The notes beneath the pieces were generated by a model, which was given only the letters and a program-made list of their open reading frames with translations, ran no database searches and was not told the origin of the DNA. From the NCBI GenBank assembly GCA_017620015.1, contig JAFZRE010000004.1, forward strand, positions 29,627-93,626: a stretch of 64,000 bases of DNA, in the 5' to 3' direction. The translations under genes were made by a program, and so were the position numbers. Source of the DNA: Bacteroidales bacterium (GTDB lineage: Bacteria; Bacteroidota; Bacteroidia; Bacteroidales; ML635J-15). Numbering within the stretch: position 1 is the stretch's first letter; each line of letters starts with the position of its first letter. This document shows, piece by piece, positions 14,517-33,600 of the stretch.

Positions 14517-14606
14517 TTATTTATAGCTCGTTGAGCGTAGTCGAAACGGCGATTGAATAGCAAATCGATTTCCTTCACTTCGACCCTTCGACAGGCTCTG
14601 GGTGCG

Positions 14607-14646
14607 ATGCTCAGTGGGCGGGGAAAAGACTATGCTCAGTGGGCGG
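14607..14646 (+). repeat. 15-bp perfect direct repeat (ATGCTCAGTGGGCGG x2, 25-bp period) in the intergenic spacer
   Basis: Copies at 14607-14621 and 14632-14646, preceded by CTTCGACCCTTCGACAGGCTCTGGGTGCG. Confidence 0.8.
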
Positions 14647-14683
14647 AAATAAACAAGAGTATAATTTTAAAATTAGTATAGAT

Positions 14684-16591: not shown

Positions 16592-16611
16592 ATTAGTACT
16601 ATTGTTTATTT

Positions 16612-16647
16612 AATGGTGTGGAGCGGTTGCTTCACACCATTTTTTTT
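16612..16647 (+). terminator. Rho-independent terminator after paralog 2
   Basis: AATGGTGTG (16612-16620) pairs with CACACCATT (16633-16641), followed by a T-run to 16647. Confidence 0.75.
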
Positions 16648-16680
16648 GTAAAAATCGTTCACACACGCAAAAATTTTCTT

Positions 16681-16688
16681 TACATTTG
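16681..16688 (+). promoter_or_regulatory. Candidate -7 box (TACATTTG) for paralog 3
   Basis: It matches TAnnTTTG and lies 36 nt upstream of the ATG at 16725. Confidence 0.4.
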
Positions 16689-16724
16689 CTGAAATTTGTT
16701 GATGTTTAATTAAAGCTTACTGAC

Positions 16725-18839
16725 ATGAAAAGATTTTTACTTTCAGCAATTGCAATCTTTGCAATAAGTATGTGCAGCTTCGCACAAAGCATCGTGTGTA
16801 CCGACAATGCATGCACAGCAATTACCGACCAGACTTTCAGCAATACAAGCGTACCGTATTACTGTCCGCAGTCGCTTACATTCGAGCATGGACAAGCCGT
16901 TGATGTGTGTATTACTATCAAATGTCCGCAAACTACAAATGTTACTGTTTCTACAATGATTGGACCAGTAGATGCTGATGCTACGATTGAAAGTCTTACA
17001 ATAACAGGCTTTTCCAATATGCCAAACGGCTTGACTTACTGCGTAAACAGAGTTGATATGGATCCGACAAACTATAATTATGCAACTATTCACATTACAG
17101 GTACAGCTCCTTCAACAAATGGAGACTATAATCTTGAAATGTCCTGTTATTTCACAGGTACGGCAAGCGCATACGGATTTAGCAACAATTTTGACAATGA
17201 AGCTATTAGTTTTACAACTGGTATTGTCCTAACCATTGGAGAAGGAAACGATACTCCTGAGCCATCGGAAATTGTTTGCGACGAACCATGTCCAGCCGTA
17301 ACCAACCAGCCGATGAGCCAGACAACAATCCCATACTATGCCCCCGAAGAGCTTAACTACAATGTGAACGAAGCCGTTGATGTTTGCATCACCATCCAAT
17401 GCCCGGCAAATACCAATGTCGAATATATGGGAATGCAGGCTGCCGCAACAATTACAAGCTTGACAATCACAGGTTTTGCCAACTTACCAGAAGGACTTTC
17501 ATACTGCGTAAGCCGTACCGAGATGGACCCGACAACCAACAATTTCGCAACATTGCATCTTACAGGAACACCAACCACGGCAGGCGAATACAACCTTAAC
17601 CTTTCGTGCAATGTAACAGGAACAGCAAATGTTTTTGGAAGTGATATGCCCCTTAACAATCAAGCAATAACATTCCCGACTGGCATCGTTGTAACAATCG
17701 AGGAAGAAACTTCAGAATTTATTGAGGCTCATTTCACCGCTAATCCCGAAATACATGACAACTACGGAGATATGGGGTTCGTTTCAATCTATCAAGGCGA
17801 ATCCATTACATTCACTAATGCCAGTACAAATGCCCATCATATAGTTTGGACATTTACAGGTGGTGATATTGAAACCTCTACAGAAAATGTAGTAACAGTG
17901 ACTTACGCAGAAGTTGGTTCTTTTTCTACAACTCTTACTGCATACAATGCTGATGAATCAGAAAGTAGCACTAAGACCGTAACCATTGGAGTAACACCAC
18001 AGCCACAAAATGAAGTTGTTGCCAATTTCACAACCAATCCCGAAGCAACCCAACTGCTCGGCGGTTCATCAATTTATATTACTGCTGGCGAAACAATTAC
18101 CTACACCAATACCAGTGAAAACGCAACAAGCATAGCATGGACATTCGAAGGAGGAAGCCCAGAAACTTCAACAGACAATACCGTCGAAGTAACTTACGCA
18201 ACAGCAGGAGTATATACCACTACACTTGTTGCATACGGAGGAAACAACACGCCAAGTGTAAAGACCGTAGGTGTAAATGTAAGCGAACCGCAACCACAGA
18301 ATGAAGTTGTTGCTGATTTTACTACAAATCCCGGAGCAACAGACGGAATAATATATATTCTTATGGGAGAAACAATAACATTTACTAATACAAGCATTAA
18401 TGCTCATCATATTTTATGGACATTCCCGGGCGGAAATCCAGAATCATCCAATGAGAATGTAGTTACTGTTGAATATTTGGATCTCAATCATACTGCCGAT
18501 TATACAACAACAGCAACACTTACTGCATACAACGAAGATGAATCTGAAAGTGACACGAAAACCATACCTATATATGTTTTTGTAATATATGATAATGTTG
18601 ACGAATCCGCTATCAGCGAAATCAGTGTTTATCCTAACCCGACAAGTTCTGTCATCAACATCTCTGCCGAAGGTATGCAGAACATTACCATCATCGATAT
18701 GACTGGTCGCGTAGTAATGAGCAAGGATGTAAACTCCAACTTCGAAACTATCAGCGCAGAAGGTTTTGCAAAGGCTAACTATATGGTTAGAATCGCAACT
18801 GCCGATGGTGTGGTTGTAAAGAACATAGTTGTTGAATAA
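16725..18839 (+). CDS. T9SS-secreted surface protein, paralog 3: two tandem He_PIG-like N-modules, 3 PKD-like domains, T9SS CTD
   Basis: Signal peptide MKRFLLSAIAIFAISMCSFAQ. N-module motifs ..MPNGLTYCVNR..IHITGTAPSTNGDYNL and ..LPEGLSYCVSR..LHLTGTPTTAGEYNL. PKD units follow. The last 76 aa differ from paralog 2 at only 2 positions. Confidence 0.85.
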   Translation: MKRFLLSAIAIFAISMCSFAQSIVCTDNACTAITDQTFSNTSVPYYCPQSLTFEHGQAVDVCITIKCPQTTNVTVSTMIGPVDADATIESLTITGFSNMPNGLTYCVNRVDMDPTNYNYATIHITGTAPSTNGDYNLEMSCYFTGTASAYGFSNNFDNEAISFTTGIVLTIGEGNDTPEPSEIVCDEPCPAVTNQPMSQTTIPYYAPEELNYNVNEAVDVCITIQCPANTNVEYMGMQAAATITSLTITGFANLPEGLSYCVSRTEMDPTTNNFATLHLTGTPTTAGEYNLNLSCNVTGTANVFGSDMPLNNQAITFPTGIVVTIEEETSEFIEAHFTANPEIHDNYGDMGFVSIYQGESITFTNASTNAHHIVWTFTGGDIETSTENVVTVTYAEVGSFSTTLTAYNADESESSTKTVTIGVTPQPQNEVVANFTTNPEATQLLGGSSIYITAGETITYTNTSENATSIAWTFEGGSPETSTDNTVEVTYATAGVYTTTLVAYGGNNTPSVKTVGVNVSEPQPQNEVVADFTTNPGATDGIIYILMGETITFTNTSINAHHILWTFPGGNPESSNENVVTVEYLDLNHTADYTTTATLTAYNEDESESDTKTIPIYVFVIYDNVDESAISEISVYPNPTSSVINISAEGMQNITIIDMTGRVVMSKDVNSNFETISAEGFAKANYMVRIATADGVVVKNIVVE

Positions 18840-18944: not shown

Positions 18945-19736
18945 ATGGAAACTACAAACAATTATATGCAATCGGCTATCCTTCGGCATCTGGAAGATAT
19001 TGAAAAACAATACGATGTAAGAATACTACTGGCCGTTGAATCGGGAAGCAGGGCTAGAGGTCTTAATTCCAACGAAAGCGACTGGGATTTGCGGTTCGTC
19101 TATGTAAACAAACTCGACTGGTACCTTAGGGTGAACGAAGACCGCGATGTAATAGAAGAAATGTACGACGACAATGTTGACCTTGTTGGATGGGAATTGC
19201 GCAAGACACTACGTCTGTTCCAAAAGTCTAACCCATCGCTGATGGAATGGCTACATTCTCCAGTAATATATCGCGCCGACGAGGATTTCCTATCACGGAT
19301 GCTGGGTTTAGAAACCGTTTATTTCAACCCCATCAAAACAATGTACCACTACGAAAGCCTTTATATAAAGCACGACAAACGCTATCTTCAAGACTCTGCA
19401 AATCCGCTGAAGCGCTTTCTGCACTATCTGCGGGGAATATTGTCTTGCCGTTGGATAGAAAAGTTTAATACTATGCCCCCAATGCTTTTTAGCGAATTAG
19501 TGCAAGGCACTGTAGATGATGATTTTATACTCAAAGAAATTGACAAGTTAATTAACTTGAAAAAGCAAAGCAAGGGAAATGATAATCTTGAGGTAAATGC
19601 AAATCTAGTGGATTATGCACGTAATTTGGCAGAACATTTTGAACGAAACATTTCAAATTTCCGTCCCGACATGAACCACACCGGCAATGCAACGAACTTG
19701 GATGCACTGCTACAGGAAATGATATTGCGGAAATAG
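18945..19736 (+). CDS. Pol-beta-superfamily nucleotidyltransferase domain protein (PF10127/RlaP-like)
   Basis: ILLAVESGSRARGLNSNESDWDLRFVYV matches the GS-x9-12-D-x-D NTase signature. The start is set at METTNNY.. (18945) rather than 18876. Confidence 0.7.
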   Translation: METTNNYMQSAILRHLEDIEKQYDVRILLAVESGSRARGLNSNESDWDLRFVYVNKLDWYLRVNEDRDVIEEMYDDNVDLVGWELRKTLRLFQKSNPSLMEWLHSPVIYRADEDFLSRMLGLETVYFNPIKTMYHYESLYIKHDKRYLQDSANPLKRFLHYLRGILSCRWIEKFNTMPPMLFSELVQGTVDDDFILKEIDKLINLKKQSKGNDNLEVNANLVDYARNLAEHFERNISNFRPDMNHTGNATNLDALLQEMILRK

Positions 19737-19740
19737 TTCC

Positions 19741-20991
19741 CTACTCTATCACGAATCTAGCCGTCTTACGGCTCTTCTGCGTCATATAGACCTTATGCCC
19801 CGAAATCATTCGGTTGATGGCTTCGTCGGTGTAGTAGCGGATGGTGATAAGCTGCAGATTTTCGTTGTACTTCACAAAGTATTCCTTCTGCAAATCGGCG
19901 ACAAGAGCATCGAAGTTGCGGTTGTTGGCATCGATGGAAGCCGAAAAGTCGATTGCTGAGTTCTGCATCACATTCACCTTTACCTTGTACTTGGCAAACA
20001 GTCCGAAAATGTTGCTCATGTTCTCCTCCACGATGAACGAAAAGTCCTTCGGTGAAATCGAAATCAGCACTTGATTCTGCTTCAAGATGTACACTGGCAC
20101 AAGGTCGAGATAGTAGTCCAATTTGCGTATTACGGTTCCTTTTGCCGACGGGTCCTTGAACGAGCGCACATAAAGCGGAATGTTCTTGTTTTCGATAGGC
20201 TTGATGGTCTTGGGGTGGATGACCTTAGCTCCGTAGAAGGCAAGTTCGATGGCTTCGTGGAACGAGATTTCGTCCAACTTCTCGGCAAAGTCGCACCAAG
20301 CCGGGTCGGCGTTCATAATGCCTGGCACATCCTTCCAGATTGTAACGCTTTCGGCATCAATGATATGTGCAATCGACGAGGCCGAGTAGTCCGAACCCTC
20401 GCGTCCGAGCGTGGTGGTGTGATGGCTGATGTCGCTACCGATGAAGCCTTGCGTTACAAAAACATTGTTGTTTGCATCCGAAAATGCCTTGCGCACCTTC
20501 TTTTCCGAAAGTTTCCAGTCGATTTTCGCATCGCGGAAATTGGAGTCGGTGACCATATAGCGGCGTATGTCGATGAATTTGTTCTGTTTTCCCCTATAGC
20601 GAAGGTATTCCGAGAAAATGGTAGTGCTGAGAAGTTCGCCGTACGATACGATGGAGTCGTACTCGAAATCGTAATCGTCGGTTGGAATGCCGTCGATGCG
20701 TTCGGCAATTTCCTCGAAAAGCGCATTCAGCTTCTTGCATACTGTTTCGGTCTTGCCGCCAAAGGCTTCGGTGACATAGTCAAGATGGAACTTCTTGATG
20801 TTCTCGAACTCGACATTTTTCTGCTCGTCGCCGTTGAAATAGTAGTTGACGAGGCGTTCCAGATGGTTGGTTGTCTTGTCGATTGCCGAAACTACAATTA
20901 CCAGTTCGTTTTCGTCCTTTATTATGTTATAGACATTCTCTATTGCCTGTGGCGTCTTTACCGATGCACCGCCGAATTTATATACCTTCAT
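19741..20991 (-). CDS. lysC: Aspartate kinase
   Basis: MKVYKFGGASVKT.. N-terminal amino-acid-kinase motif, ..TLGREGSDYSA.., and C-terminal ACT-like repeats. Length is 416 aa. Confidence 0.85.
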   Translation of the reverse strand: MKVYKFGGASVKTPQAIENVYNIIKDENELVIVVSAIDKTTNHLERLVNYYFNGDEQKNVEFENIKKFHLDYVTEAFGGKTETVCKKLNALFEEIAERIDGIPTDDYDFEYDSIVSYGELLSTTIFSEYLRYRGKQNKFIDIRRYMVTDSNFRDAKIDWKLSEKKVRKAFSDANNNVFVTQGFIGSDISHHTTTLGREGSDYSASSIAHIIDAESVTIWKDVPGIMNADPAWCDFAEKLDEISFHEAIELAFYGAKVIHPKTIKPIENKNIPLYVRSFKDPSAKGTVIRKLDYYLDLVPVYILKQNQVLISISPKDFSFIVEENMSNIFGLFAKYKVKVNVMQNSAIDFSASIDANNRNFDALVADLQKEYFVKYNENLQLITIRYYTDEAINRMISGHKVYMTQKSRKTARFVIE

Positions 20992-21002
20992 ACAATTATT
21001 TT

Positions 21003-21112
21003 GTTTCTAAGTTTATATGGGCTACGCCCGTTTCTAAGTTTCTATGGCTAACGCCGTTTCTATGTTTCTCGCTACGCTGTTTGATGGCTAACGCCGTTTA
21101 TAAGTTTTTAAT
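21003..21112 (+). repeat. Tandem array of 22-27-bp units (GGCTAACGCCGTTTCTAAGTTTC family), 4 degenerate copies
   Basis: gtttctaagtttatatGGGCTACGCCCGTTTCTAAGTTTCtatGGCTAACGCCGTTTCTATGTTTCtcGCTACGCTGTTTGatGGCTAACGCCGTTTATAAGTTTTT. Related units occur at 1091-1150 and, inverted, at about 54045-54085. Confidence 0.75.
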
Positions 21113-21378
21113 GTTCAGGGTTTAACAGTTCAAAGTCGTAGCGACGCAACACTTTGCGTCGATTGTTTTTTATGGTTTGATATGACACTATTCCTTACCA
21201 TTGCTTTTCGTTTGTGTTGCAAACTTATATAAAAATTACGATTTATATGCCAGTGTAATAAAGAAAATTCATTGTTGACAATCAAATAGTTGCAAATTTT
21301 CTTTAGAAGACAAGATTCTTGATTATCTGCTGTTAACTCATTTTCCGAATCACTTAGCAGCAAGTTATATGGTGTAAT

Positions 21379-21945
21379 TTACAAACAGAATATTTTCGGT
21401 TCCCTGACCAGACGGTTCATGTCGTCAAGCAAGGCGGCGTTTGAGAAAACAATGCCGTTGCGTTCTACAGTACCGTAACCATTGTGTGCGTGACCGAAAA
21501 GATGGTAGCGGGGATTAACCTGCAAAATTCGGTTTCGCAATGGCGCATTTCCCCAATGTACTCCAGCCGACTCGTCGAGTATCATAATTGGCGGTTCGTG
21601 GGTGACCACCACATCAGCATCGGCAGGAATCAGCTCTTCCGGATGGTTGTACGCCAGCCCGAAGAACTTGACGCCATCGATTGTTACGCTTTTGTCCTGC
21701 AGGAAATGAACATTGTCGGGTAGGTCTTCGATGTTTTCCGCATCCCAGAGGCAAAGGTCGTGGTTGCCAGTTACGAAAATCTTGTGTTGGTAAGGCAGTT
21801 CTATCAGCCAGTTTAGAAAGTCGAGCACCTCTTCCTCGGTGCCACTATTGCTGATGTCACCGCTATGAACGATGACATCAGCACTTGGCAAGTCTTTTAT
21901 CTTTCGGTGAAGACCGTGAGTATCGGAGAGGTGGAGGAGTTTCAT
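21379..21945 (-). CDS. Metallophosphoesterase (calcineurin-like phosphoesterase superfamily)
   Basis: Motifs LSDTHG, HSGDISN, GNHD, VTHEPP and GHAHNG appear in the canonical order. Confidence 0.85.
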   Translation of the reverse strand: MKLLHLSDTHGLHRKIKDLPSADVIVHSGDISNSGTEEEVLDFLNWLIELPYQHKIFVTGNHDLCLWDAENIEDLPDNVHFLQDKSVTIDGVKFFGLAYNHPEELIPADADVVVTHEPPIMILDESAGVHWGNAPLRNRILQVNPRYHLFGHAHNGYGTVERNGIVFSNAALLDDMNRLVREPKIFCL

Positions 21946-21962
21946 AGATGCAATTATATAAA

Positions 21963-22826
21963 TTACAAGTTATATCTATCTTTCATATAATCCAAGTACT
22001 TCCCATGTTCTTGCATCTTCAATTTTAACTTGCTAAAAAATTCTTGATATGACATCGCTTTAAAATTTATGCAATCATCGAGATGCTTCTGAAAATCCTC
22101 CAATTCTTCACTATGCTTTTTCATTTCGTCAGAAGCAACGCAATAATACAAATAGCAAAGTTTATATTTTTTATTCTGACTAGACAAACCAAGCAAGTGC
22201 TTAATCAATTGAGCTGCATCAAGGTATTTATATGTATATGGGCAAACCCTAGCTATCTTATTCTCATCATATTTTTCTGTTTCCCAAGTATCAATCCATT
22301 CTTTTAACTTTGAGAAACGCTTTATTATAAATTCATAATTTGAATTCGGATCTAAGTATGACTGCTTCAAAAGTCTTGAATCTCCACTAACTTTTCCATA
22401 AGGTTCAGTGAACTTACTCTCAATAGCTATTAACTCATTAGCTCCCTCAATTACGAAATCCAAATTTGCAGGGAAACGATTACCAGTCTTTGTGCCTTTG
22501 ATTGGAAATTTATATTCAAAATCTCCATTCAAAGGATTATTCATCCTTACACCAAACACATCAGAAACAATATCCAACATTTGTTTTTCTAATAAATACT
22601 GAAAAACATTTACACAAAACGCAGAAGAAGAATGCAAAGCCCTCATTTTTGCTTTATCCGAGTCTATCAACTCATTACCATTTGCTTTTTTGAATCTGGC
22701 TTCTACTTTTTCAAGTAATTTATTACTAAAAATATTGTCATAAACATTTACACAATACAACCCTTTTGTTCCTATCTTATTCTTTGCCCAATCTTGTTGG
22801 TGCTTCTTAATTTCATTTACAATCAT
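21963..22826 (-). CDS. Hypothetical protein with a PD-(D/E)xK nuclease-like motif (orphan restriction-endonuclease-like)
   Basis: ..NLDFVIEGANELIAIESKFTEP.. gives D-x12-E-x-K in a predicted beta-hairpin context. The gene is very AT-rich compared with its neighbours. No adjacent DNA methyltransferase was seen. Confidence 0.5.
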   Translation of the reverse strand: MIVNEIKKHQQDWAKNKIGTKGLYCVNVYDNIFSNKLLEKVEARFKKANGNELIDSDKAKMRALHSSSAFCVNVFQYLLEKQMLDIVSDVFGVRMNNPLNGDFEYKFPIKGTKTGNRFPANLDFVIEGANELIAIESKFTEPYGKVSGDSRLLKQSYLDPNSNYEFIIKRFSKLKEWIDTWETEKYDENKIARVCPYTYKYLDAAQLIKHLLGLSSQNKKYKLCYLYYCVASDEMKKHSEELEDFQKHLDDCINFKAMSYQEFFSKLKLKMQEHGKYLDYMKDRYNL

Positions 22827-23111
22827 ATCTCAAAAATTTTAATTTATAATCCACAAATTTAATCATAAAGTACATATATCCTAACACATTATGCGAAAAA
22901 AGATTCTTTGTTGTAGTCACATAAACTTCCGTTTCAAAGGAGATTTCGGACAGGTTAATTCACACAGCTCTCCGTTCCGTATCGCTGGTTCATTATACCT
23001 TCCGAAATGACGGAGAGAAGTCATTCCACAAAGCTGAACAAACCGACTAAGGAACGTGTCGTGTGAGTTCGCTTGTGCGGAATCTCCTTCTTTGGACCCA
23101 TTATGCAATTT

Positions 23112-23549
23112 TCATTCAGATTTTCGCATCCTATCCCTTTCATCATCCACCTCCGTCCTGTACTTTTGCAGTTTCTGTTTTTCTGCGAGATACCACTTGG
23201 CTATGAGTTGCAACTGGTATTCGTAGGCAGTTCCCGGGTCAACAAGCAAACTTGCACCCAAAAAGTTCCCTAAAAAATGTTCGTACGCGACATAAAGCTC
23301 GACACCGTTATTGGCTTGCATCACTGGCTCCAAATATTTCGCCAGCATTAAACCAAACACAAACTGCTCCTCGGGCGTTGCATACTCCCTATAAACATCT
23401 GCCATTTTTTTCGCAGTTTCACCATCCAACCACAAACATTGATCCTCGTAGGGAGTTGTTGTAATTTCTTGCGCGTTAACACTCCGCACGCCAAACAATC
23501 CAATCACTAATACCAACAAAATGTTCACTACAATTCTTTTCATAATCAT
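23112..23549 (-). CDS. Small secreted hypothetical protein
   Basis: Signal peptide M(IM)KRIVVNILLVLVIGLFGVRSVNAQ, with no recognisable domain. It starts 9 nt after the stop of the DnaE-like gene. Confidence 0.6.
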   Translation of the reverse strand: MIMKRIVVNILLVLVIGLFGVRSVNAQEITTTPYEDQCLWLDGETAKKMADVYREYATPEEQFVFGLMLAKYLEPVMQANNGVELYVAYEHFLGNFLGASLLVDPGTAYEYQLQLIAKWYLAEKQKLQKYRTEVDDERDRMRKSE

Positions 23550-23557
23550 TCAACATT

Positions 23558-25732
23558 TTAATTTTCATCAAAAAACTCAAAATAATTCGCTTTTAAGTAT
23601 GCCAATCGGTATTCGAGCATACAATCACCTACATATACCGACTTCATAGCCAAATTTTCCCAGCGTTTAAGCATTTCCCAAAATTCATCTATGCTATCGA
23701 CACTAAAACCTCTCTCAAATCCTCTTCGGACAAATTCTTCTTTTTGGAACAGCAAATCATCAATTGAATCCAATATGTCATTATACAGTTTCAATGCCAT
23801 ATTGGAATTATAACCCAACACATCAATAAGCAACTGATACAATTGCTCCCTGTATAAAGGCATTCCACCAGTAGGTTTGAATATTGCCTCAACAGCGGGA
23901 GACGGATACATTTTTTGTGGATTGTTCTTCTCCGAAATGTATTCTGCTACAATTTGTTTCCATTGAGGACGTCCGGCAACAGCCCACAAGTCAACCAATT
24001 CACAAAAAGAAACTCTGTTAAGTTGTTTTAGGTAAGGCATTATGCTTTCGACAGGCAACAAATAATCGCCACTGCAAATCAAGTCAAATGTAGACTTGTC
24101 GTTCATTGGAATATCTTCGGCGCGTATGTCGTAACCGTTCTTGTCTTTAATCCGCTTCAATATCTCATCGATTCTCGACAATTTATCTTCGTTATATATT
24201 CCAATGGCGCAAACTTCGGAACAATCTATTTCATACATCTTGTACTGAGAAACAATATTATCGCCCACACGGCACAACGGCAGTTTCGACATCATATCGT
24301 TTGCACAAATAAGCACACTGCTATACGAAACCCAGTCTTGCCTTACAGTTCCCTCCAAAATTGCAATATTGTTTATGCAGTTGTTCTTCAACGAGTTTTC
24401 TTTCCACGGCACAAAAGAAACTGCTCCTGCAAAATTTTCACTCCCATACTTTTCTGTAAGGTATCTACTAATCTTTCCAATGTCATCAATCCCAACTTCC
24501 ATAGCAATAGGCAAGTGGTTTGCATCCTTGAAAAACAACCAATTCGTAAGTCCATATTTTATCGGGTCAATATCGGTTAAGTGCAAACAGTAGCAAACAA
24601 TAGAACCATTCATAAATCCACGCCCCCTGACCTGCAAACCGAGTTCAATTCTTATTGACTTGTAAATGTCATATACAAGCAACATGTAGTCGGCGAAATT
24701 TTTGTTTTCCGTCAAATACTTCATTTCTTCTTCGATACGGTTGAGCACTTCGGCAGGAATTGTTTTCCCATAATGCGCCATAGCACCCTGCATCACCAAG
24801 AATTTCAAATATTCCTTGCTGTTTTCAAAATCGTTGGGAACGGACGCTTCTAGACAACTATCGTGCAAGGAAAGAATATCCACATCCACCTTGTCCACAA
24901 TTTCCCGAACATTGTATATTGCTTCGGGAATGTCGGCAAACAACTCTGCCATTTCCTCTGGCGACTTTAGATATTCCTGTCCTGTATAGTGAATGCCAGT
25001 ACGCAACTTCTTGTACTTTCGCGAGAAGTTCATAAATTCATCCTGAGCATCGGCATCTTCGGCATTAATAAAATGCACATCGTTGGTTGCAATAATATTA
25101 GCGCCGTGCCTGTTCGCTAATCTCAAAAGGACCTCGTTTACATACTGCTGTGTGCGATAAGTTTCTGTGTCGCTTACATGGCGTTGCATCTCAATGTAGA
25201 AATCATAACCAAACAAATCCATATACCACAACAGAACTTTCTCTGCTTCATCTTCCCTGCCATCGATAATAAGGCGCGGAATTTCGCCTCCTAGACAAGC
25301 GGAACAAGCAATTATACCCTCGTGATACTTTTCAAGCATTTTGTGGTCGATGCGTGGAATCCGATTGAAGCCTTCGAGATAACCGAGCGAACTAAGTCGG
25401 CACAAATTTCTGTAACCGACTTCCGACTTCGCCAGCAAAACCAAATGGCGAACCGAACTATTGTCGTGCGCGGTCTCCAAATCTTCAACTATGTACGCCT
25501 CCGTACCAGGAATAAACTTGAACGAAGAATCAATGCGACCTCGTTCCTTTTGCTTTTGGACAAATTTTGCCATCTCCATAACGGCCTTCATACTGCCGTG
25601 GTCGGTAATGGCAATTGCATTCATACCAAGTTCAACACTACGCCGAATCAATTCGTCCGGCTTACAAATTGCATCAATCTCCGAATAAATGGAGTGAACA
25701 TGCAAGTGGGAAAATTTTATTTCTCTTTTCAT
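23558..25732 (-). CDS. DnaE (Pol III alpha)-derived protein: intact PHP domain, degenerate polymerase active site, C-terminally truncated architecture
   Basis: HLHVHS, AITDHG, PGTEAY, HLVLLA, CSAC and ATNDVHF match the PHP metal-ligand motifs. ELFADIPEA and [21 protein letters not shown] are colinear with DnaE. [9 protein letters not shown] replaces MPDFDVDF and AIGIYNE replaces KFDFLGL. The ORF ends at ..[14 protein letters not shown], the equivalent of the end of the fingers domain. Confidence 0.75.
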   Translation of the reverse strand: [724 protein letters not shown]

Positions 25733-26206
25733 AACAAAAAAAATCTATCCCTATTCAATACGATTTCGAAATTTAAAACTGGACAACGGAAGGCATTTTG
25801 GGGGCTAAATCGCCTATTTTTGCCTGTTTTTGAAATGTGAAAATTTGTATTTATATTATTATGATTATTTTTTAATAGTAAAAACAACCAAATTGCGTAT
25901 AATATTTTTCAAGGATGGCAAAAACAGGCATTTTTGGGCACTTTTTGGGGTAAAAATAGCCCAAAACTTACGACATATTTTGTCACAAAAAGGCAAATTC
26001 TTCGCGAAAACAGGAAAAATCGGGAAAAAGCAGATTTTTTTAGAGTAGTAAGGCTATGATTATTTTCAATAGCATCACAATCATTTGCACTCGCCAAACA
26101 AAACAAAAATGCGCACTCCATTGCGCACATTTTGCAAAATATTGCGCAGTCTATTGCGCAGTTTTGAACCCCCGAAGTGCTCAAACTGCTAAATTCTCAG
26201 CTGTAT

Positions 26207-27430
26207 CTATTCCTTTTTGTCCACAGTTGCCTGCTTGTTCGGCCCTCTTCTATAGTGCCGTCTGTTAGGACGCTTCTGGGGGGAGGCGCCGCTTGTAATA
26301 TCCTTTGTTTTCTGCGGTTTTTCATCGTCAATGCCACGCGTAAGCTTGCGGACAATCTTGTACTCCGACAGAAATTCCTTCGCCACCACGCGCAACACGG
26401 TATAGACAGGGATTGCAAGCATCATACCCACAATGCCATAGAGCGTTCCTGCCACAATTATCACAACGAAAATCTCGAGTGGATGGGCGTTTACACTGCG
26501 CGAATAGAAGAACGGCTGGAAGACAAAGTCATCAATCAGCCTTACAACAACAACCGTTATCAGCAAGCCGTAAATCTGCGGCATAGTGTAGGTGTAGAAG
26601 TCGAGGTTCACATTGGCGGCACCAATGAAAGCGATTCCGATTGCCGCGCCAATCCACGGTCCGATGTACGGGATAATGTTGAGGAAACCGCAGAGCATAC
26701 CAATCAGCAGCGAAAGTCCAAAGTTCTGTCCGCAAATCAGCATTCCGATGGTTATCAATGTTGTAACCGACAGCATCTCGAAGAAAATCCCATGTAGGTA
26801 GTTCTTGATGAGCTTCGGAAGCTTGTCGAGGATATGGGTTGCCTTTTCCTCGTAGCGAGTTGGCACAAGCGCCATAATCAGGCTGCGGAAAAGTTTGGTC
26901 TCCTTGAGGAAGAAATAGGTGAAGAATGTTATCGAAAACAGCGACAAAAACAGCGCGATTGCCGTGCTTCCAAGGTTGCCGGCAATGTTGCCGAGCGCCG
27001 AGAAGTTGATGACATCCTTTACATTTTCAATAATTACATCTTCGGTCGAAAATTCGGGCATCCCGAAAATAGGGTACGAGCGTACAAACTCGTCAATCTT
27101 TTGAATAGGCTGGCTAAGACCTGCCTGCAGGCTTTCGATGTCGATGTTCTGGAACTGTGCAATCTGCTTACCGACAAACGGAACTGTCAGCACAACAAAC
27201 AGAACTAGCACACCCCATATAAGTATGGTGGTAATCATTGCCGACACCCAGCGAGGCATCTGGAAGCGACCGAAATGAATCTTGTCCAAAAGTTTTACAA
27301 TCGGGCTCGAAATTGCCGCTATGAAACCAGCAATTAGCAGCCACCACACTATGTTGGAAAAATATATACAGAACAGCACAAGAATTGCTGCGCCAATAAG
27401 TCCTATGATATATTTGCGGTATTTCTCCAT
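26207..27430 (-). CDS. AI-2E family (PerM/YhhT/TqsA-like, UPF0118) transporter
   Basis: About 8 TM segments, the family-typical C-terminal segment ..GIVGMMLAIPVYTVLRVVAKEFL.., and a basic cytoplasmic tail. Confidence 0.75.
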   Translation of the reverse strand: MEKYRKYIIGLIGAAILVLFCIYFSNIVWWLLIAGFIAAISSPIVKLLDKIHFGRFQMPRWVSAMITTILIWGVLVLFVVLTVPFVGKQIAQFQNIDIESLQAGLSQPIQKIDEFVRSYPIFGMPEFSTEDVIIENVKDVINFSALGNIAGNLGSTAIALFLSLFSITFFTYFFLKETKLFRSLIMALVPTRYEEKATHILDKLPKLIKNYLHGIFFEMLSVTTLITIGMLICGQNFGLSLLIGMLCGFLNIIPYIGPWIGAAIGIAFIGAANVNLDFYTYTMPQIYGLLITVVVVRLIDDFVFQPFFYSRSVNAHPLEIFVVIIVAGTLYGIVGMMLAIPVYTVLRVVAKEFLSEYKIVRKLTRGIDDEKPQKTKDITSGASPQKRPNRRHYRRGPNKQATVDKKE

Positions 27431-27434
27431 ATTT

Positions 27435-28646
27435 CTATTTTTCTGTTGTATTGTTTTCGTCTGAATTTTCCTTGCCTTTGGTGTTCTTCATAAAAAGCGA
27501 GAAGAAGGCGCCTGTCGGACAGAGGAAAGTACACCACGGACGGTTTATGAATATCGAAAGCACAAGCATCACACCTGCCAAAATCAGCACTGCCAGCGAA
27601 GCAAACTGGAACTTGAATGCCGAGAAAGGCTCAAAGTTCTCGATGCTGATGTCAAGCGAAGTACAGAGCAATGCTCCTAGTGCTACAAGCAGAACATAAC
27701 GCAGGTAGCGCAGCCATTTTGCAACTTTGGGCGAAATTTTCAGCTTGTGCTTGGGATTTACCTTGCCGACAAGTTCCTGGCAAGCCCCGAACGGACAAAC
27801 ATACATGCAATAGAATTGTTTGCCTAGGAAAAGCGGAGCAATAATTCCAGCTACAAGCACAATGAACAGGAAAATTTCCATCTGCCAGTTAACACCCGAA
27901 ACAAGCCATGCCGACAATTTTGCAATGCTGATGAACTGTCCGAGCCAGAAGCCAAGTATTCCGATTGATGCCAGTAGCAGTACGATGCGGAATTTCCTTG
28001 TGCGCTGTGGTTCCCAGAAGCAGAATCCAGCGAACAGCAGGAATACCATCGAGGCGATGAATTCCACGAGGTTGCCCATATTCTCCGTTTCGGCAGAAGT
28101 TGTGGCACTGCCGGCGTATGTTTCGAGGCGAATTCGTAACGATTTCGATATTGCCGAACTAGAATAGGTCGCACCAGTCACAGCATCAACAACTTTTGCT
28201 TTTGCCTCGTCGATCGAAAGACCATTCCAGCTTTCGAGGAAACCTTTTGCCACTACGCGGTCGAGGAAGGATGGCGTTTCGTTGTTGTCGAGCAGATGTA
28301 CTTTCTGCACTTTGTCATCGGGCGAAAGTAGCACTACAAGCGGAATATTTCCAGCATAGCCCTTTATGTCGGCACAGTATGGCATCGAGAAAAGAGCTTT
28401 GCCTACCAGTTTTTCCGACTTGTCGTAAAGCAGGTAGCAGTCGTTGTCGGCTGTATATTCGTAGTACGAGAAATTTTCAACTATTTCGGCAAAGCAGGCT
28501 GTTGAATCACCAAGTTCGGCAATGCGTTCGGGCTGCTTTGTTCCTATTTCGTAGTTGAACACCTTGCCCGATGTCAGGCAGATAGCCACGGCAAAGACGA
28601 GAAGGAGTCCTATTTTGATGAAACGGTTCATAAAATGATATTGCAA
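27435..28646 (-). CDS. Membrane FMN-binding / 4Fe-4S (polyferredoxin, NosR/NapH-like) protein
   Basis: FMN_bind flavinylation-type motif VDAVTGATYSSSAI. TM segments carry CMYVCPFGACQ and CTFLCPTGAF cysteine motifs. An alternative start, MNRFIKIG.., lies at 28631. Confidence 0.75.
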   Translation of the reverse strand: MQYHFMNRFIKIGLLLVFAVAICLTSGKVFNYEIGTKQPERIAELGDSTACFAEIVENFSYYEYTADNDCYLLYDKSEKLVGKALFSMPYCADIKGYAGNIPLVVLLSPDDKVQKVHLLDNNETPSFLDRVVAKGFLESWNGLSIDEAKAKVVDAVTGATYSSSAISKSLRIRLETYAGSATTSAETENMGNLVEFIASMVFLLFAGFCFWEPQRTRKFRIVLLLASIGILGFWLGQFISIAKLSAWLVSGVNWQMEIFLFIVLVAGIIAPLFLGKQFYCMYVCPFGACQELVGKVNPKHKLKISPKVAKWLRYLRYVLLVALGALLCTSLDISIENFEPFSAFKFQFASLAVLILAGVMLVLSIFINRPWCTFLCPTGAFFSLFMKNTKGKENSDENNTTEK

Positions 28647-28987
28647 TTATTTTTTTCAATCAAGTCTTCAATATCTTTTTTCAGAGCAGGAATATGTTTT
28701 ATTACCAAACTCCACAAAAATTCAGGTGTAACGCTATCATAACCATGAATAACCCTGTTCCTCGTCTGAATAATAGCCTTTGATTCTGGCAATAGAAATT
28801 TTTCATCTCTTTGAGCAATACACCCCATTGCTTCTCCCATAATCTCAACATTCCGTTCAACGGCGCGAATTTTCATAGTGTCATGCCTAAATTCTTCAAA
28901 TATTTTGGGCTTATCTGCGAAAAACAATTCTACTTCTTTGCAGGCATTCCAAATATCAACTAGGCATGTAAGTATATACTCATCCAT
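28628..28987 (-). CDS. hepT: HepT (DUF86) RNase toxin of a type VII MNT/HepT module
   Basis: R-x4-H-x-Y motif in ..TRNRVIHGYDSV... The start, MDEYILT.. at 28987, overlaps the MNT stop within ATGGATGA (8-nt overlap). The ORF-track start at 29053 would overlap MNT by 74 nt. Confidence 0.8.
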   Translation of the reverse strand: MDEYILTCLVDIWNACKEVELFFADKPKIFEEFRHDTMKIRAVERNVEIMGEAMGCIAQRDEKFLLPESKAIIQTRNRVIHGYDSVTPEFLWSLVIKHIPALKKDIEDLIEKNNCNIIL

Positions 28988-29279
28988 ATATCTGCTTTTT
29001 TGTGTTGTCAATATTTCTGCGCAATACTGCATTATGTATTCCAGCATCCTCAATAAGGTCGATTTCTCTGCACAACAGAAGCGACAAACTTTCTTTAAGA
29101 TTCAAATAATTGTCTGCATAATCGTATGCAGAAATGTCTTTAAAGGATACAAGCATATCAACATCGCTATCGCTATTGAACCTGTCGGTAAGAACCGAAC
29201 CAAATACAAAAAGACTACTTACATTGTGGGAACGGCACAATGCAGAAATGCTATCAATATTCGACTCAATAATGTTCAT
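28980..29279 (-). CDS. mntA: MNT (MntA-like) nucleotidyltransferase antitoxin
   Basis: FVFGSVLTDRFNSDSDVDMLV matches the GS-x10-D-x-D minimal NTase motif. It is 99 aa and lies directly upstream of HepT. Confidence 0.8.
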   Translation of the reverse strand: MNIIESNIDSISALCRSHNVSSLFVFGSVLTDRFNSDSDVDMLVSFKDISAYDYADNYLNLKESLSLLLCREIDLIEDAGIHNAVLRRNIDNTKKQIYG

Positions 29280-29289
29280 ATTGCAAAAA

Positions 29290-29550
29290 TTATTCGTAGT
29301 GCCCCTTCATGGCGAGAACCATTATATGATCGCTATGAACCTCATACACTATGCGGTTTCCTTGGTTGATATGACGAGACCATACACCAGAAAGTTCATG
29401 TTTCAGTTGTTCTGGTTTTCCAATACCAGTAGTAGGATGCTCCGCAATGTCGTCAAGAAGACTGGAGATTTTGCGCATAATGGATTTCTGCCCACTCTGT
29501 CTCCAAAAGTCACGGTGTTCCAGTGCCGTTTCGGTATACCTTATTTCCAT
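29290..29550 (-). CDS. yoeB: Txe/YoeB-family mRNA interferase toxin
   Basis: ..GIGKPEQLKHELSGVWSRHINQGNRIVYEV..KGHYE is colinear with E. coli YoeB (..[28 protein letters not shown]..RYHY). Confidence 0.85.
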   Translation of the reverse strand: MEIRYTETALEHRDFWRQSGQKSIMRKISSLLDDIAEHPTTGIGKPEQLKHELSGVWSRHINQGNRIVYEVHSDHIMVLAMKGHYE

Positions 29551-29750
29551 AAGTCTTCGGTTCTTATGGTCTTGTACTTGCCTTCCCGTGCTTCTTTTTG
29601 GCTGCGCTTTATCATTGCTACATATTCTGGATTGTATGGTTTTTCTTCCTTGGCGATGTCCTTGCGTTTCGCCCCATACTTTTCAAGCAATGCAATGAGA
29701 TCCTGCATCAACTTGTTTCTTCCATCATATTCAAGTGTTATCGTTGCCAT
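29541..29750 (-). CDS. Antitoxin partner of YoeB (DUF2683-like)
   Basis: This 69-aa ORF overlaps the toxin start by 10 nt. The pattern ..ITLEYDGRN..PYNPEYVAMIKRS..GKYKTIRTEDLW is as remembered for Bacteroidota DUF2683 antitoxins. Confidence 0.65.
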   Translation of the reverse strand: MATITLEYDGRNKLMQDLIALLEKYGAKRKDIAKEEKPYNPEYVAMIKRSQKEAREGKYKTIRTEDLWK

Positions 29751-29775
29751 ATTTTTCTCCCAGTTTATTTTGTTG

Positions 29776-29783
29776 CAAATTTA
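29776..29783 (-). promoter_or_regulatory. Candidate -7 box (TAAATTTG on the minus strand) for the toxin-antitoxin / redox / transporter gene string
   Basis: The plus strand reads CAAATTTA. It lies 25 nt upstream of the antitoxin ATG at 29750. Confidence 0.4.
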
Positions 29784-29808
29784 CATAATTTTTTCAAATA
29801 TCACTCTG

Positions 29809-30513
29809 TCATATTATGAAAATACAAGGTTTTTTGTTTAAATCAAGTTTTTCTCGCTTCCACTCGGCGATGGATTTTGTGCAGATAAACTCGTCGTCGG
29901 AAGTAATATTGAGAGCGATACAAAGCATTGTCTGTGGCGAAAGCGTTGCCTTCAGGTCGTCGAGCAGACGGTTGTTGCGGTAGGGCGTGTCCATGAATAT
30001 CTGCGACTGGCCTTCCTTTCGCGAACGGGCCTCCAAATCGCGCAACTTGCGGGTGCGTTCTGGCTGGTCGATGGGAATGTAGCCGTTGAATGCAAAGTTC
30101 TGTCCGTTCAGTCCCGAAGCCATCAGCGCCATCATCATAGAACAAGGACCGACAAGCGGCACGACCTTAATCCCCTTGCGATGAGCCATTGCCACAATCA
30201 CATTTCCCGGGTCGGCGACGCAGGGAAGTCCAGCTTCGCTGATAAGTCCGATGTTTTCACCATTTTCGGCAGCATCAAGGTAGTTGGAAATGTCGGTGTC
30301 GATGGTGTGCTTGTTGAGTTCGTAGAAGGTTGTCGAGTCGATGTCAACCTCACGGTTAAGCTGGCGCAGATAGCGACGCACAGTACGCACGTCCTCCACA
30401 ATGTAGTGCTTTATGGTTGGCACTAGCGCCACAAGTCTCTGTGGCACAACCTCGTCAAGCGGAGCCTCGCTTATCTTGTTGGGTATGAGATATAGAATAC
30501 CTTTTGAATCCAT
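29809..30513 (-). CDS. SAM-dependent methyltransferase, tetrapyrrole-methylase/RsmI-like fold
   Basis: GLISEAGLPCVADPGNVIV resembles the RsmI motif SDAGTP.ISDPG. The start is set at MDSKGILYLIPN (30513), because a -7 box (30534-30541) lies inside the longer ORF. Confidence 0.7.
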   Translation of the reverse strand: MDSKGILYLIPNKISEAPLDEVVPQRLVALVPTIKHYIVEDVRTVRRYLRQLNREVDIDSTTFYELNKHTIDTDISNYLDAAENGENIGLISEAGLPCVADPGNVIVAMAHRKGIKVVPLVGPCSMMMALMASGLNGQNFAFNGYIPIDQPERTRKLRDLEARSRKEGQSQIFMDTPYRNNRLLDDLKATLSPQTMLCIALNITSDDEFICTKSIAEWKREKLDLNKKPCIFII

Positions 30514-30533
30514 CGTAAAACTATTACAATTTG

Positions 30534-30541
30534 CAAAAATA
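30534..30541 (-). promoter_or_regulatory. Candidate -7 box (TATTTTTG on the minus strand)
   Basis: The plus strand reads CAAAAATA. It lies 20 nt upstream of the ATG at 30513. Confidence 0.4.
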
Positions 30542-30636
30542 GGGAAAAAACATGGCATAACTTGTATGCATAAGTTTTTTTCTTCACTTTTTGTTTTTTA
30601 TATCAAAAAACTCAACCGCCAAAGCACAATTATTTT

Positions 30637-30644
30637 TAATTTTG
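30637..30644 (+). promoter_or_regulatory. Candidate -7 box (TAATTTTG) for leuS
   Basis: It lies 19 nt upstream of the ATG at 30664. Confidence 0.45.
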
Positions 30645-30663
30645 CGACTTAAAATTTTAGAAG

Positions 30664-33600
30664 ATGGAATACAACTTTACGGAAATTGAACGCAAATGGC
30701 GCGAATACTGGAAGAAACACGACACCTACAAGGCTGTTATCGACAAATCTAAGCCCAAATACTACGTCCTCGACATGTTCCCTTATCCTTCTGGAGCAGG
30801 TTTGCACGTAGGACATCCGCTTGGATACATCGCTTCCGACATCTTTTCAAGATACAAGACTCTGAAAGGCTTCAACGTTTTGCACCCGATGGGCTATGAT
30901 GCCTTCGGTTTGCCAGCCGAACAGTACGCTATACAGACGGGCACTCACCCTGCAATAACAACAGAAAAGAACATTAACAAGTACCGCGAACAGCTCGACA
31001 ACCTCGGCTTTTCGTTCGACTGGAGCCGCGAAGTGCGCACCAGCGACCCGAAGTACTACAAGTGGACACAGTGGACTTTCATTCAGCTTTTCAACAGTTT
31101 CTACTGCAACAAATGCCAGAAAGCCCGTCCAATCGCTGAACTCGTTGCCGAATTTGCACAAAACGGCACAAAAAACATTGATGCAGCTTGCACCGAAGAC
31201 CTTTCGTTCACAGCAGATGAATGGAATTCGTGGGACGAAAAAAAGCAGCAGCAAGTTCTTATGAACTACCGCCTTGCATACCTTGCCGACATTCCTGTGA
31301 ACTGGTGTCCGAAACTCGGCACCGTGCTTGCCAACGACGAAGTTGTCGATGGTCTGTCGGTACGCGGCGGCTACCCTGTTGAGCGCAAGAAGATGCGCCA
31401 GTGGTCGTTGAGAATTACAGCCTACGCACAGAGACTACTCGACGGACTAAACACCGTTGATTTCCCAGAACCCGTAAAGGACATACAGAACAACTGGATA
31501 GGTCGTAGCGAAGGTGCTTCGGTATTCTTCGAAATCGAAGGCCGCAGCGAAAAAATGGAAATCTTCACCACCCGTCCCGATACCATTTTCGGCGTTTCGT
31601 TCATGGTAATTGCACCCGAACACGACCTTGCTCTTTCTCTCGCTACCGACGAGTATCGCGCAAAGGTTGAGGAGTATGTAACTTGGGCAAAGAACCGTTC
31701 TGATGTTGAGCGTATGGCCGAGAAGAAAGTCAGCGGACAAATGACAGGTTCCTACGCAATTAACCCATTCACAAAGGAACGTATTCCAATCTTCATCGCC
31801 GACTATGTATTAATAGGTTATGGTACTGGCGCAATTATGGCAGTTCCGGCACACGATAGCCGCGACTTTGCTTTCGCACGTCACTTCAATCTGCCTATTT
31901 CGCAGGTTGTTGCTAAGGAAGGAGCCGAAATCGTTCCAACCGACCAATGGACAGAATCGTTCGATTCGAAGGACGGCATTCTTATGAATTCCGATTTTCT
32001 CAACGGATTGCGCGTAAAGCAGGCTATCAAGGCTATGAACGACCGCATCGAGGAGATGGGCATAGGCAAGCGCAAAGTTAACTACCGTCTGCGCGATGCT
32101 ATTTTCAGCCGTCAGCGCTACTGGGGCGAACCGTTCCCAATTTACTACAAGGACGGCATCCCGTATCCGCTCGACGAGTCGAAACTTCCGCTCGAACTTC
32201 CCGAAGTTGACAAATATTTGCCAACCGAAACTGGTGAGCCACCACTGGCACGCGCAAAGAACTGGTGTACACCCGAAGGCTACAAGTACGAAACCTCGAC
32301 AATGCCAGGATTTGCTGGTTCGTCGGCATATTACCTGCGCTACACTGACCCGCACAACGACGAGATGATTTTCTCGCCAGAGGCAGTAAACTACTGGCAG
32401 AATGTTGACCTCTACATCGGTGGTCGCGAACACGCAACCGGACACCTTATATATTCGCGCTTCTGGAACAAGTTCCTCTACGACCTCGGATTGGTTCCCA
32501 ACGAAGAACCATACAAGAAGCTCATCAACCAGGGTATGATTCAGGGTCGTTCGAACTTCGTTTACCGCGTCAGCAGTTTCGAGAAGATGGCTGAATATAA
32601 GGTTTGGCAGTTGTTGAAAGACAAGAAGTTGGGCGTTGAATTCAAGCAGGACTACAAGGATGGCAAACGCCGTTTCGACTTCTACTGCGATGAAAAGAAA
32701 ATCCTTATTGAAATTAAGCGCGAACATTCGCTCGAAAAGGTTGCCGAAGCATACAGCGAATACGCAAAGGACAAGGGCTACAGGATTCTGCTTATCTCTA
32801 TCTTCGATGTTATGAACCGCATCAATGTGGTTGAGCAGAAGATTAAGGATTTGGTTGCAGGCGGTGATGTTCCAGAATTCGAGGAAGGCGAAGCATTTGT
32901 TCCGATTAACCTATTCATTTCGAAGAACATTCCAGGTCGCGAAGAATTCACCGTTCCGATTCATGTTGACATCAACATTGTAAGCAACGACATCCTCGAC
33001 ATTGACAAGTTCCGCCAGTGGAGGCCAGACTTCAACGACGCACAGTTCGTTCTTGAAGACGGAAAGTATGTTTGCGGATGGGAAATCGAGAAGATGTCGA
33101 AGTCGATGTACAACGTTCAGAACCCCGACGACCTTGTAGAACGCTACGGAGCCGACACCTTGAGGCTTTACGAAATGTTCCTAGGTCCTGTTGAGCAGGC
33201 TAAACCATGGGATACCAACGGAATAGAAGGTGTTGCAAGGTTCATAAAGAAGTTCTGGCGTATGTTCCACGACGAGGACAACAATTTCTGCATTTCGAAT
33301 GAAAAGGCTACGCCTGCAGAACTGAAGACTTTGCACAATACTATCAAGAAAGTTACCGACGACATTGAAAGGTTCTCGTTCAATACTTGTGTAAGCTGCT
33401 TCATGATTTGCTGCAACGAACTTGGCAAGTGCAACAAGCGCGAAATCCTTGAACCGCTTTGCGTTCTTATTTCGCCCTACGCTCCGCATATCGCCGAGGA
33501 ACTGTGGCACGAATTCGGACACGATACATCGGTAACCAAGGCTCAATGGCCAGAATATAACGAGGCTTACACCAAGGAAACAACATTCACTTACCCGATT

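Follow-up and report, generated by a model that had tools for sequence, protein, structure and literature searches.

The alpha subunit of bacterial DNA polymerase III (Pol III alpha), a polymerase of family C, is usually viewed as either the essential replicase or, as DnaE2, a polymerase of the mutasome. In family X, noncanonical prokaryotic PolX proteins that lack polymerase activity work as exonucleases through their PHP domain (Prostova et al., 2022, PMC9226535), and "PolX-like" proteins are described in PMC12926913, a survey of bacterial polymerases. Both large surveys of family C (PMC3919608, PMC12926913) left aside fragments lacking an intact polymerase site or sequences that were strongly diverged or truncated; no equivalent of a polymerase-dead DnaE was found in them, nor was any description of such a protein found in the literature. 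Here, we analyzed a stretch of 64,000 nucleotides (nt) from an uncultured Bacteroidales bacterium (contig JAFZRE010000004.1, positions 29,627 to 93,626; hereafter the window), which carries on its minus strand an open reading frame (ORF) of 724 amino acids (aa). The original prediction, made from the letters of the window, had read this ORF as a polymerase-dead DnaE paralog retained for its PHP domain. We refer to the gene as short dnaE and to its product as short DnaE.

With DnaE1 (2HNH; Taq 2HPI/3E0D; M. tuberculosis 5LEW/7PU7), short DnaE shares the PHP, palm, and fingers fold (TM 0.76–0.86) and the same nine-ligand PHP site that occurs in the PHP-proofreading DnaE1 of Taq, M. tuberculosis, and canonical Bacteroidales. 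However, it lacks the catalytic Asp triad, the thumb, and the beta-binding/HhH, OB, and tau-binding domains, it scores under the cutoff of TIGR00594, and its identity in the palm and fingers is 27–28%, whereas the canonical enzymes are ~65% identical to each other. The best functional analog is PolX, in which the polymerase site likewise decays and the PHP nuclease site is conserved. PolX belongs to family X and has a C-terminal PHP domain, whereas short DnaE belongs to family C and has an N-terminal one, which makes it an analog and not a member; moreover, the exonuclease of PolX has been shown biochemically, whereas that of short DnaE is a prediction. ImuB is also a polymerase homolog kept without its catalytic residues, but it is of another family and is an adaptor with a clamp-binding motif. 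DnaE2 is, like short DnaE, a non-essential DnaE paralog; however, it keeps the triad and its PHP domain is usually inactive, which is the opposite of the situation in short DnaE. The DnaE2/ImuC model NF004225 gave 206 against a cutoff of 939, the triad is lost, and no imuA- or imuB-like genes were found beside short dnaE, the neighbors of which encode an AI-2E transporter, an orphan protein, a restriction-type nuclease (REase), and a metallophosphoesterase (Metallophos). A split-intein DnaE-N of the cyanobacterial kind was also rejected, with no Hint/intein Pfam domain and no C-terminal half in the window. The parts of the gene are the following (window coordinates):

23558..25732, minus strand: short dnaE, 724 aa, a truncated DnaE1 paralog predicted to be polymerase-dead (PHP, palm, no thumb, fingers, stop)
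24863..25732, minus strand: PHP domain, aa 1–290, nine metal ligands kept (Pfam PHP, 2e-45)
24413..24862, minus strand: N-terminal palm segment, aa 291–440, with the degenerate nucleotide-binding loop GRGFMNGS (Pfam, MAFFT)
24488..24514, minus strand: LPIAMEVGI, aa 407–415, in place of canonical MPDIDIDF, with a 3-residue deletion (HMMER, MAFFT, hmmalign)
24362..24412, minus strand: 17-residue linker, aa 441–457, at the site of the ~70-residue thumb (alignment to Taq and to the canonical DnaE P0009)
24188..24208, minus strand: AIGIYNE, aa 509–515, in place of canonical KMDFLGL, with Gly511 at the third Asp (HMMER, MAFFT, hmmalign)
23561..24172, minus strand: fingers remnant, aa 521–724, ending at the fingers/beta-binding boundary (Pfam, 6e-18; aligns to Taq 666–836)

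The ORF was confirmed, far beyond chance, as a true homolog of Pol III alpha. In a phmmer search of the PDB, the top match was Taq Pol III alpha (6.5e-64), and the matches to the Taq, E. coli, and M. tuberculosis enzymes ranged from 6.5e-64 to 1e-45. Pfam recognized a full PHP domain (PF02811, aa 9–185, 2e-45), DNA_pol3_alpha (PF07733, aa 307–445, 5e-21), of which only model positions 1–140 of 260 were covered, and DNA_pol3_finger (PF17657, aa 518–656, 6e-18). The closest NCBIfam models were all those of DnaE and all stayed under their cutoffs, with 410.7 bits against 434.35 for TIGR00594 and 270–380 bits against 1000–1800 for the equivalogs (NF004226, 369 against 1002). An AlphaFold2 model based on a 45-sequence alignment reached a predicted local distance difference test score (pLDDT) of 85 and a predicted TM-score (pTM) of 0.83. 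When this model was searched with Foldseek, cores of Pol III alpha were the sole matches, including Taq 2hpi (E = 2e-46) and E. coli alpha 2hnh (TMq 0.86, root-mean-square deviation 3.9 Å); the structural check proposed with the original prediction thus shows a fit to E. coli Pol III alpha at a TM of 0.86. Colinearity with roughly the first 900 residues of DnaE had been claimed, but the alignment covers ~785 E. coli residues. The higher AT content noted in comparison with the flanking housekeeping genes was reproduced (GC 0.406 and GC at third codon positions, GC3, 0.441, against a GC3 of 0.53–0.66).

The catalytic positions of the palm were compared using an alignment of seven cluster representatives of the short clade and 110 full-length Bacteroidota DnaEs. 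The three columns concerned (E. coli D401/D403/D555; Taq D463/D465/D618) are each occupied by Asp in 110/110 canonical sequences. In short DnaE, the strand that is meant to hold the first two of them lies in the palm segment aa 291–440 and reads, across the clade, LPIA(M/L)E(V/I)GI. This strand and the AIGIYNE segment were found exactly at the positions originally given for them, and the AlphaFold2 model has a predicted beta-strand at 409–413 and a strand at 507–514. HMMER against Taq, one of two references used for the first two positions (the other was M. tuberculosis), placed a gap at D463 and Ala409 at D465. MAFFT with the 110 canonical sequences gave a gap at the first Asp, Glu411 at the second, and, at the third (Taq D618), Gly511 in the window protein and Lys in most orthologs, while hmmalign to the canonical profile gave Ala, Glu, and Gly. 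The claim that all three aspartates had been replaced therefore holds in that no Asp stands at any of the columns, but one acidic residue, E411, can be aligned at the second, depending on the aligner. At most, this one conservative Glu appears placeable in a catalytic position, and no alignment puts acidic residues at all three. In addition, the invariant GPGRGSAAGS loop has a variable Arg position inside the short clade (R, L, S, or C), and in the MAFFT alignment HAGG is changed to YSS/G and FNKSH to AMK-SV.

A further loss, the deletion of the thumb domain, had gone unnoticed when the scaffold motifs were aligned in the original prediction. Residues 438 and 457 of short DnaE pair with Taq 493 and 563, and the deleted canonical segment, GTMA..AIKD.GRV...LSKL.P, was mapped against P0009 441–520; we take this segment to be the thumb, presumably E. 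coli residues ~433–510. The thumb interval comprises 19 residues in short DnaE; in 57 full-length representatives, all of which keep both the triad and the thumb, its median length is 68 and the shortest is 52. At 24 positions of the polymerase half, at least 95% of the canonical enzymes have Lys or Arg; short DnaE keeps 8/24 and has lost 16/24, several of which are now Asp or Glu, and the isoelectric point of the fingers is 4.9, against 6.7 in the canonical enzymes. The share of canonical invariant columns retained is 81% in the PHP domain, 53% in aa 291–400, 21% in the palm core, and 27% in the fingers.

The C-terminus of short DnaE corresponds to Taq ~836–841 (E. coli ~780–785), with a non-intein tail of 6 residues after the YLKANY motif, and Pfam found no beta-binding/HhH (PF14579), OB-fold (PF01336), or tau-binding domain in the 724-aa protein, as expected from the proposed stop at the end of the fingers. 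A search of the ORF segments of the window with the canonical DnaE profile returned no other match, that is, neither a displaced C-terminus nor a canonical dnaE. The original view of a dead polymerase is borne out by the lost triad, the variable Arg of the GRGS loop, the deleted thumb, the absent C-terminal domains, and the TIGR00594 score under the cutoff. The absence of polymerase function is effectively shown, as far as residue comparison goes, and the protein so predicted cannot act as a polymerase or a replisome subunit.

Because genes may be split at domain boundaries such as the one at which short dnaE stops, an assembly or frameshift artifact or the N-terminal half of a split canonical dnaE was also considered. 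The probability of this is negligible. The same ORF with its stop codon was recovered from independent ENA, Logan, JGI, and NCBI assemblies, many of which yielded members of the clade, and this refutes the artifact and disposes of the concern that the gene is a fragment; furthermore, the window contains neither homology to the DnaE C-terminus nor an intein/Hint Pfam domain, and the loss of the catalytic residues lies inside the ORF.

The metal site of the PHP domain is, by comparison, complete. The nine ligands (H11, H13, D20, H45, E78, H96, C146, D218, and H220; motif HHDHEHCDH) are invariant in 117/117 sequences (7 short and 110 canonical), so that the statement that all PHP ligand motifs are present stands, and the motifs HLHVHS (9–14), AITDHG (41–46), PGTEAY (75–80), HLVLLA (96–101), CSAC (143–146), and ATNDVHF (215–221) were all found at exactly these coordinates. 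The pattern agrees with HHDHEH[C/H]DH, the criterion by which active PHP domains were recognized in a 2026 polymerase survey (PMC12926913).

The distribution of short DnaE is narrow. A word-indexed search of 5.8 billion proteins returned eight close clusters at 77% identity or higher, of which seven are 724–739 aa long and one is a 405-aa fragment; the remaining matches were full-length DnaEs with ~32–43% identity. When 1.84 billion 50% representatives were searched exhaustively with HMMER, with the degenerate C-terminal half as the seed, one cluster and two fragments below 1e-30 were found, and a wider family was rejected because nothing other than the clade and these two fragments was returned. 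The clade members come from four GTDB species, all of them uncultured rumen Bacteroidales represented by metagenome-assembled genomes, and carry the NCBI labels "PHP domain-containing protein" or "DNA polymerase III subunit alpha." Intact orthologous ORFs are present at nine loci compared here (L003, L005–L008, and L019–L022), and ~25 further cluster members are full length (724–743 aa) with an intact ORF.

Selection on the gene was assessed by the ratio of nonsynonymous to synonymous substitution rates (omega, Nei-Gojobori), which was 0.18–0.27 overall for six orthologs. Bootstrapped values were 0.13–0.15 for the PHP domain (confidence interval 0.08–0.21) and 0.20–0.26 for the polymerase half (no upper bound above 0.34) at a synonymous divergence (dS) of 0.36–0.91; omega in the fingers was 0.18–0.40. 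In canonical dnaE orthologs at a dS of 0.72, by contrast, omega was 0.055 in the PHP domain and 0.031 in the polymerase core. The pattern of constraint is thus inverted, since omega is lowest in the PHP domain of short dnaE and in the polymerase core of the canonical gene. Relative to the latter, the polymerase half is relaxed ~7-fold and the PHP domain ~2.5-fold, the PHP domain now being the most conserved part. In the comparison of the window with an 82%-identical relative, dS was 0.48 for short dnaE and 0.21–0.44 for the flanking genes, a similarity that points to vertical inheritance of the gene with its neighborhood.

These data also bear on whether the gene is a slowly decaying and now functionless relic of a partial dnaE duplication. 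Its omega of 0.21 in the same comparison is 3–10 times that of the housekeeping neighbors (aspartokinase, AI-2E transporter, and methylase), its GC3 is lower, and short DnaEs of other lineages, such as P0130, are found in assorted states of decay. However, the 2.2-kb ORF is unbroken in every full-length copy recovered, at a dS of 0.3–0.9, omega is significantly below 1 in every region, and the nine PHP ligands are invariant; we therefore regard a relic as very unlikely. Short dnaE is a real gene under purifying selection and not a pseudogene, and the proposal that it is kept for its PHP domain agrees with the intact ORF in all full-length copies and with the lowest omega (0.13) being on that domain.

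Two kinds of variation were observed within the clade. Between loci L003 and L007, the dS of short dnaE is mosaic (0.64 in the PHP domain and 0.03 in the palm core), which suggests intragenic recombination among the alleles. The sub-lineage of P0002 (L006:10001-12190; 739–740 aa) has a 15-aa C-terminal extension, and its degenerate HAGG region contains an insertion in which a VLI-AN motif is repeated (GGVLIHANVLICAN); since this sub-lineage carries the insertion, insertions appear to be tolerated in the dead palm.

We propose that short DnaE is a lineage-specific DnaE1 paralog acting as a stand-alone PHP nuclease or phosphoesterase on a dead Pol III alpha scaffold, and we give this proposal an even chance of being right. 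In this scheme, a copy of DnaE1 would have been stripped of the Asp triad, the thumb, the nucleotide-binding Arg, and most conserved basic residues, as well as of the beta-clamp/HhH domain, the OB fold, and the tau-binding domain, and would neither synthesize DNA nor enter the replisome. Its retention would be owed to the N-terminal PHP domain, a trinuclear-metal phosphoesterase, which would most likely work as a free-standing Mn/Zn-dependent 3′-5′ exonuclease or as a phosphoesterase that cleans 3′ ends of DNA. We infer the catalytic activity and the substrate of the PHP domain from the conserved ligands and from the known DnaE1 PHP proofreaders and the PHP domains of PolX. The residual palm and fingers would be mainly a folded scaffold that supports the PHP barrel, without a canonical primer-template clamp. 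With the thumb and most basic residues gone, this remnant probably has no canonical grip on a primer-template; because it is under selection, it may stabilize the barrel or offer a new interaction surface.

Several points weigh against this proposal. The PHP exonuclease of DnaE1 is fed by the polymerase's own grip on DNA, and with the thumb and 16/24 basic positions lost, some of them replaced by acidic residues, canonical DNA binding by short DnaE is doubtful. RNA, nucleotides, or pyrophosphate can be substrates of PHP domains as well. The omega of the PHP domain (0.13) is ~2.5 times the canonical dnaE value, that of the dead polymerase half (~0.23) suggests that this half does more than fill space, and the distribution is very narrow, with one 50%-identity cluster.

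The constraint on the dead half leads to the main rival, a non-catalytic pseudo-enzyme that serves as a binding scaffold, regulator, or decoy and keeps its PHP ligands for metal-dependent folding only; it could, for instance, sequester a partner of the alpha PHP/palm region, such as a DnaQ-type proofreader, or bait a phage factor that targets Pol III. Consistent with such a role, the dead palm and fingers are under purifying selection (omega 0.20–0.26), the shape of the alpha core is kept (TM 0.86), and the variable islet around the gene also holds toxin-antitoxin pairs, a restriction-type nuclease, and a PADLOC candidate; for E. coli alpha, moreover, a structural role of the PHP domain is documented (PMC3666897). 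On the other hand, E. coli alpha folds despite the loss of several PHP ligands, and the nine invariant ligands in the most constrained domain are more than a structural role usually requires. Nor is there a conserved partner gene, except for an orphan secreted protein, or a PADLOC match for short DnaE. Taken together, we consider the pseudo-enzyme unlikely, although less so than the other rivals.

The surroundings of short dnaE were examined for functional partners. The features next to the gene are the following:

25733..26206, minus strand: intergenic region upstream of short dnaE, 474 nt (sequence)
23112..23549, minus strand: orphan ORF of 145 aa with a signal peptide, 9 nt downstream of short dnaE (ORF list, relatives)
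21963-22826, minus strand: PD-(D/E)xK nuclease of the REase-ARP/PGN_0703 family (Pfam); a functional link to short DnaE is unsupported
21379-21945, minus strand: calcineurin-like metallophosphoesterase, 188 aa (PADLOC candidate PDC-S10, 5.5e-67)

The 145-aa ORF follows short dnaE in every relative whose contig reaches beyond the gene and occurs as two allele types that are ~50% identical. Its signal peptide is conserved and the canonical DnaE profile has no match in it, in agreement with the earlier reading of this ORF as a signal-peptide protein rather than a displaced DnaE C-terminus. Its homologs are confined to the clade, and it matched no family in Pfam, NCBIfam, PADLOC, or PHROGs. The pair formed by short dnaE and this ORF is separated by a gap of 285 nt from the pair formed by the REase and Metallophos genes. 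The metallophosphoesterase is kept in the clade (93–95% identity, omega 0.08). The REase gene has a GC content of 0.31, against a window mean of 0.435, and its slot (window 21963-22826; L003:12833-13696) holds an allele only 25% identical in relatives whose flanking genes are 93–99.5% identical, which looks like allelic replacement of a restriction-type gene. Elsewhere, homologs of this REase are located in type I restriction-modification (R-M)/phospholipase D (PLD) islands or alone, without a DnaE-like or Metallophos neighbor. A dedicated partnership between the REase and short DnaE was rejected because the REase allele has been swapped independently and its homologs elsewhere have no DnaE-like neighbor. 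Of the two neighbors whose co-occurrence had been proposed as a check, the 145-aa ORF thus accompanies short dnaE in every relative with a contig that extends beyond the gene, but the PD-(D/E)xK gene is no dedicated partner.

Given this arrangement, short DnaE, the small secreted protein, the REase-ARP nuclease, and the PDC-S10 metallophosphoesterase could together constitute a multi-gene anti-phage module. The four genes stay adjacent, with an unchanged order, in all relatives with contigs long enough to include them, the metallophosphoesterase is the PADLOC candidate listed above (5.5e-67), the REase family is found in R-M/PLD islands elsewhere, and MNT/HEPN and other toxin-antitoxin pairs come and go around the block. 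However, the gene order is constant among close relatives with flanks that are 92–99.5% identical, and their adjacency thus amounts to nothing beyond inherited synteny. The 285-nt gap between the two pairs, the swapping of the REase allele (25% identity) independently of short dnaE, and the absence of DnaE-like or Metallophos neighbors from its homologs elsewhere also speak against a module. In PADLOC, neither short DnaE nor the 145-aa ORF had a match and Metallophos alone did; moreover, short DnaE has no relatives in the viral contigs of IMG/VR, for which reason a phage origin was rejected as well. Such a module thus seems improbable, and the stand-alone PHP enzyme is still the reading we prefer.

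The locus is a variable accessory islet, in which nothing was found that ties the function of short DnaE to the REase/Metallophos pair. The toxin-antitoxin pairs around the block differ (window 28628-29550; L019:14234-15119), with DUF2683/YoeB and MNT/HepT in the window and YafQ/ParE-type pairs instead at L003 and L019, and loci L019–L022 have an extra MNT/HEPN pair after the metallophosphoesterase. On the minus strand at window 26106-26170, just downstream of the AI-2E gene, several copies of TGCGCAAT form two or three terminator-like hairpins. Those at 26106-26160 belong to the upstream AI-2E transporter gene, so that short dnaE probably has a promoter of its own. A sigma-70 promoter scan is uninformative for Bacteroidota, and a scan of positions 19000–31000 against Rfam found no family.

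The genomes that carry the short form are expected to have a separate canonical dnaE. A replicative C-family polymerase was present in every bacterial genome surveyed, ~2000 in one study (PMC3919608) and >3000 in another (PMC12926913). In the relatives, a holB-type gene (DNA_pol3_delta2) is located ~9 kb away. From these facts, and since short DnaE would be unable to replicate DNA, we infer that a canonical dnaE lies elsewhere in the same genomes; the four close canonical DnaEs that were traced (P0009, P0043, P0073, and P0012) come from assemblies other than those of the short-form carriers.

Among the best 150 representatives matched by the C-terminal half of short DnaE, eleven proteins of other lineages, 708–814 aa long, also end 1–11 residues from the AYLKAxY motif. 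Three of them are encoded as follows, and the others are P0131, P0139, P0173, P0188, P0223, P0249, P0254, and P0266:

L015:2545-4887: P0130, complete gene with a stop codon, inside its contig
L016:4749-7013: P0194, complete gene with a stop codon, inside its contig
L023:2102-4486: P0208, complete gene with a stop codon, ending one base from the contig end

These proteins share with short DnaE the AYLKAxY end, and some are thumbless (P0194 and P0254) or, when the catalytic columns are scored with indel-tolerant windows, have lost at least one catalytic Asp (P0130, P0188, P0208, and P0223); their gene contexts are unlike that of short dnaE. P0130 has lost the triad together with 3/9 PHP ligands, and P0194 keeps D-x-D. 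An intact nine-ligand PHP site combined with complete loss of the triad and deletion of the thumb occurs in none of the eleven. Their nearest relatives are mostly different canonical DnaEs; for this reason, a single family of fingers-terminated short DnaEs was rejected, and truncation of dnaE at the fingers/beta-binding boundary seems to be recurrent and polyphyletic.

In a broader and more tentative interpretation, which we hold to be somewhat less probable than the proposed PHP activity itself, short DnaE would be the first C-family polymerase turned into a stand-alone PHP nuclease, a pseudo-polymerase that represents one outcome of recurrent dnaE truncation, in which the thumb is sometimes lost and the product is then exapted or decays, and that belongs to a class filtered out by surveys. 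If so, the PHP nuclease of family C would be able to live independently, as recently shown for PolX, and short DnaE would provide a natural separation-of-function variant for the role of a DnaE-type PHP domain without the polymerase. It would also draw attention to fingers-terminated DnaE-like genes, which are annotated as "DNA polymerase III subunit alpha" and discarded by comparative surveys. The practical reach is limited by the confinement of the clade to uncultured rumen Bacteroidales.

The surroundings of P0194 (L016:119-11679) are of a different kind. The gene is flanked by those of a WYL-WCX regulator and a DnaB_C/AAA_25 RecA-like protein. Upstream there is the gene of an AAA_21/ABC ATPase; the downstream side has two unknown ORFs, a second DnaB_C-like protein, and DprA. 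This locus may be a mobile-element replication cassette or a mutasome-like one. Elsewhere in the window of short dnaE, genes at 13233-18839 on the plus strand encode PKD and Por_Secre_tail domains (cargo of the type IX secretion system), and three giant ORFs of 3004, 3348, and >3272 aa are located on the minus strand at 1361-10375, 43797-53843, and 54182-64000, respectively.

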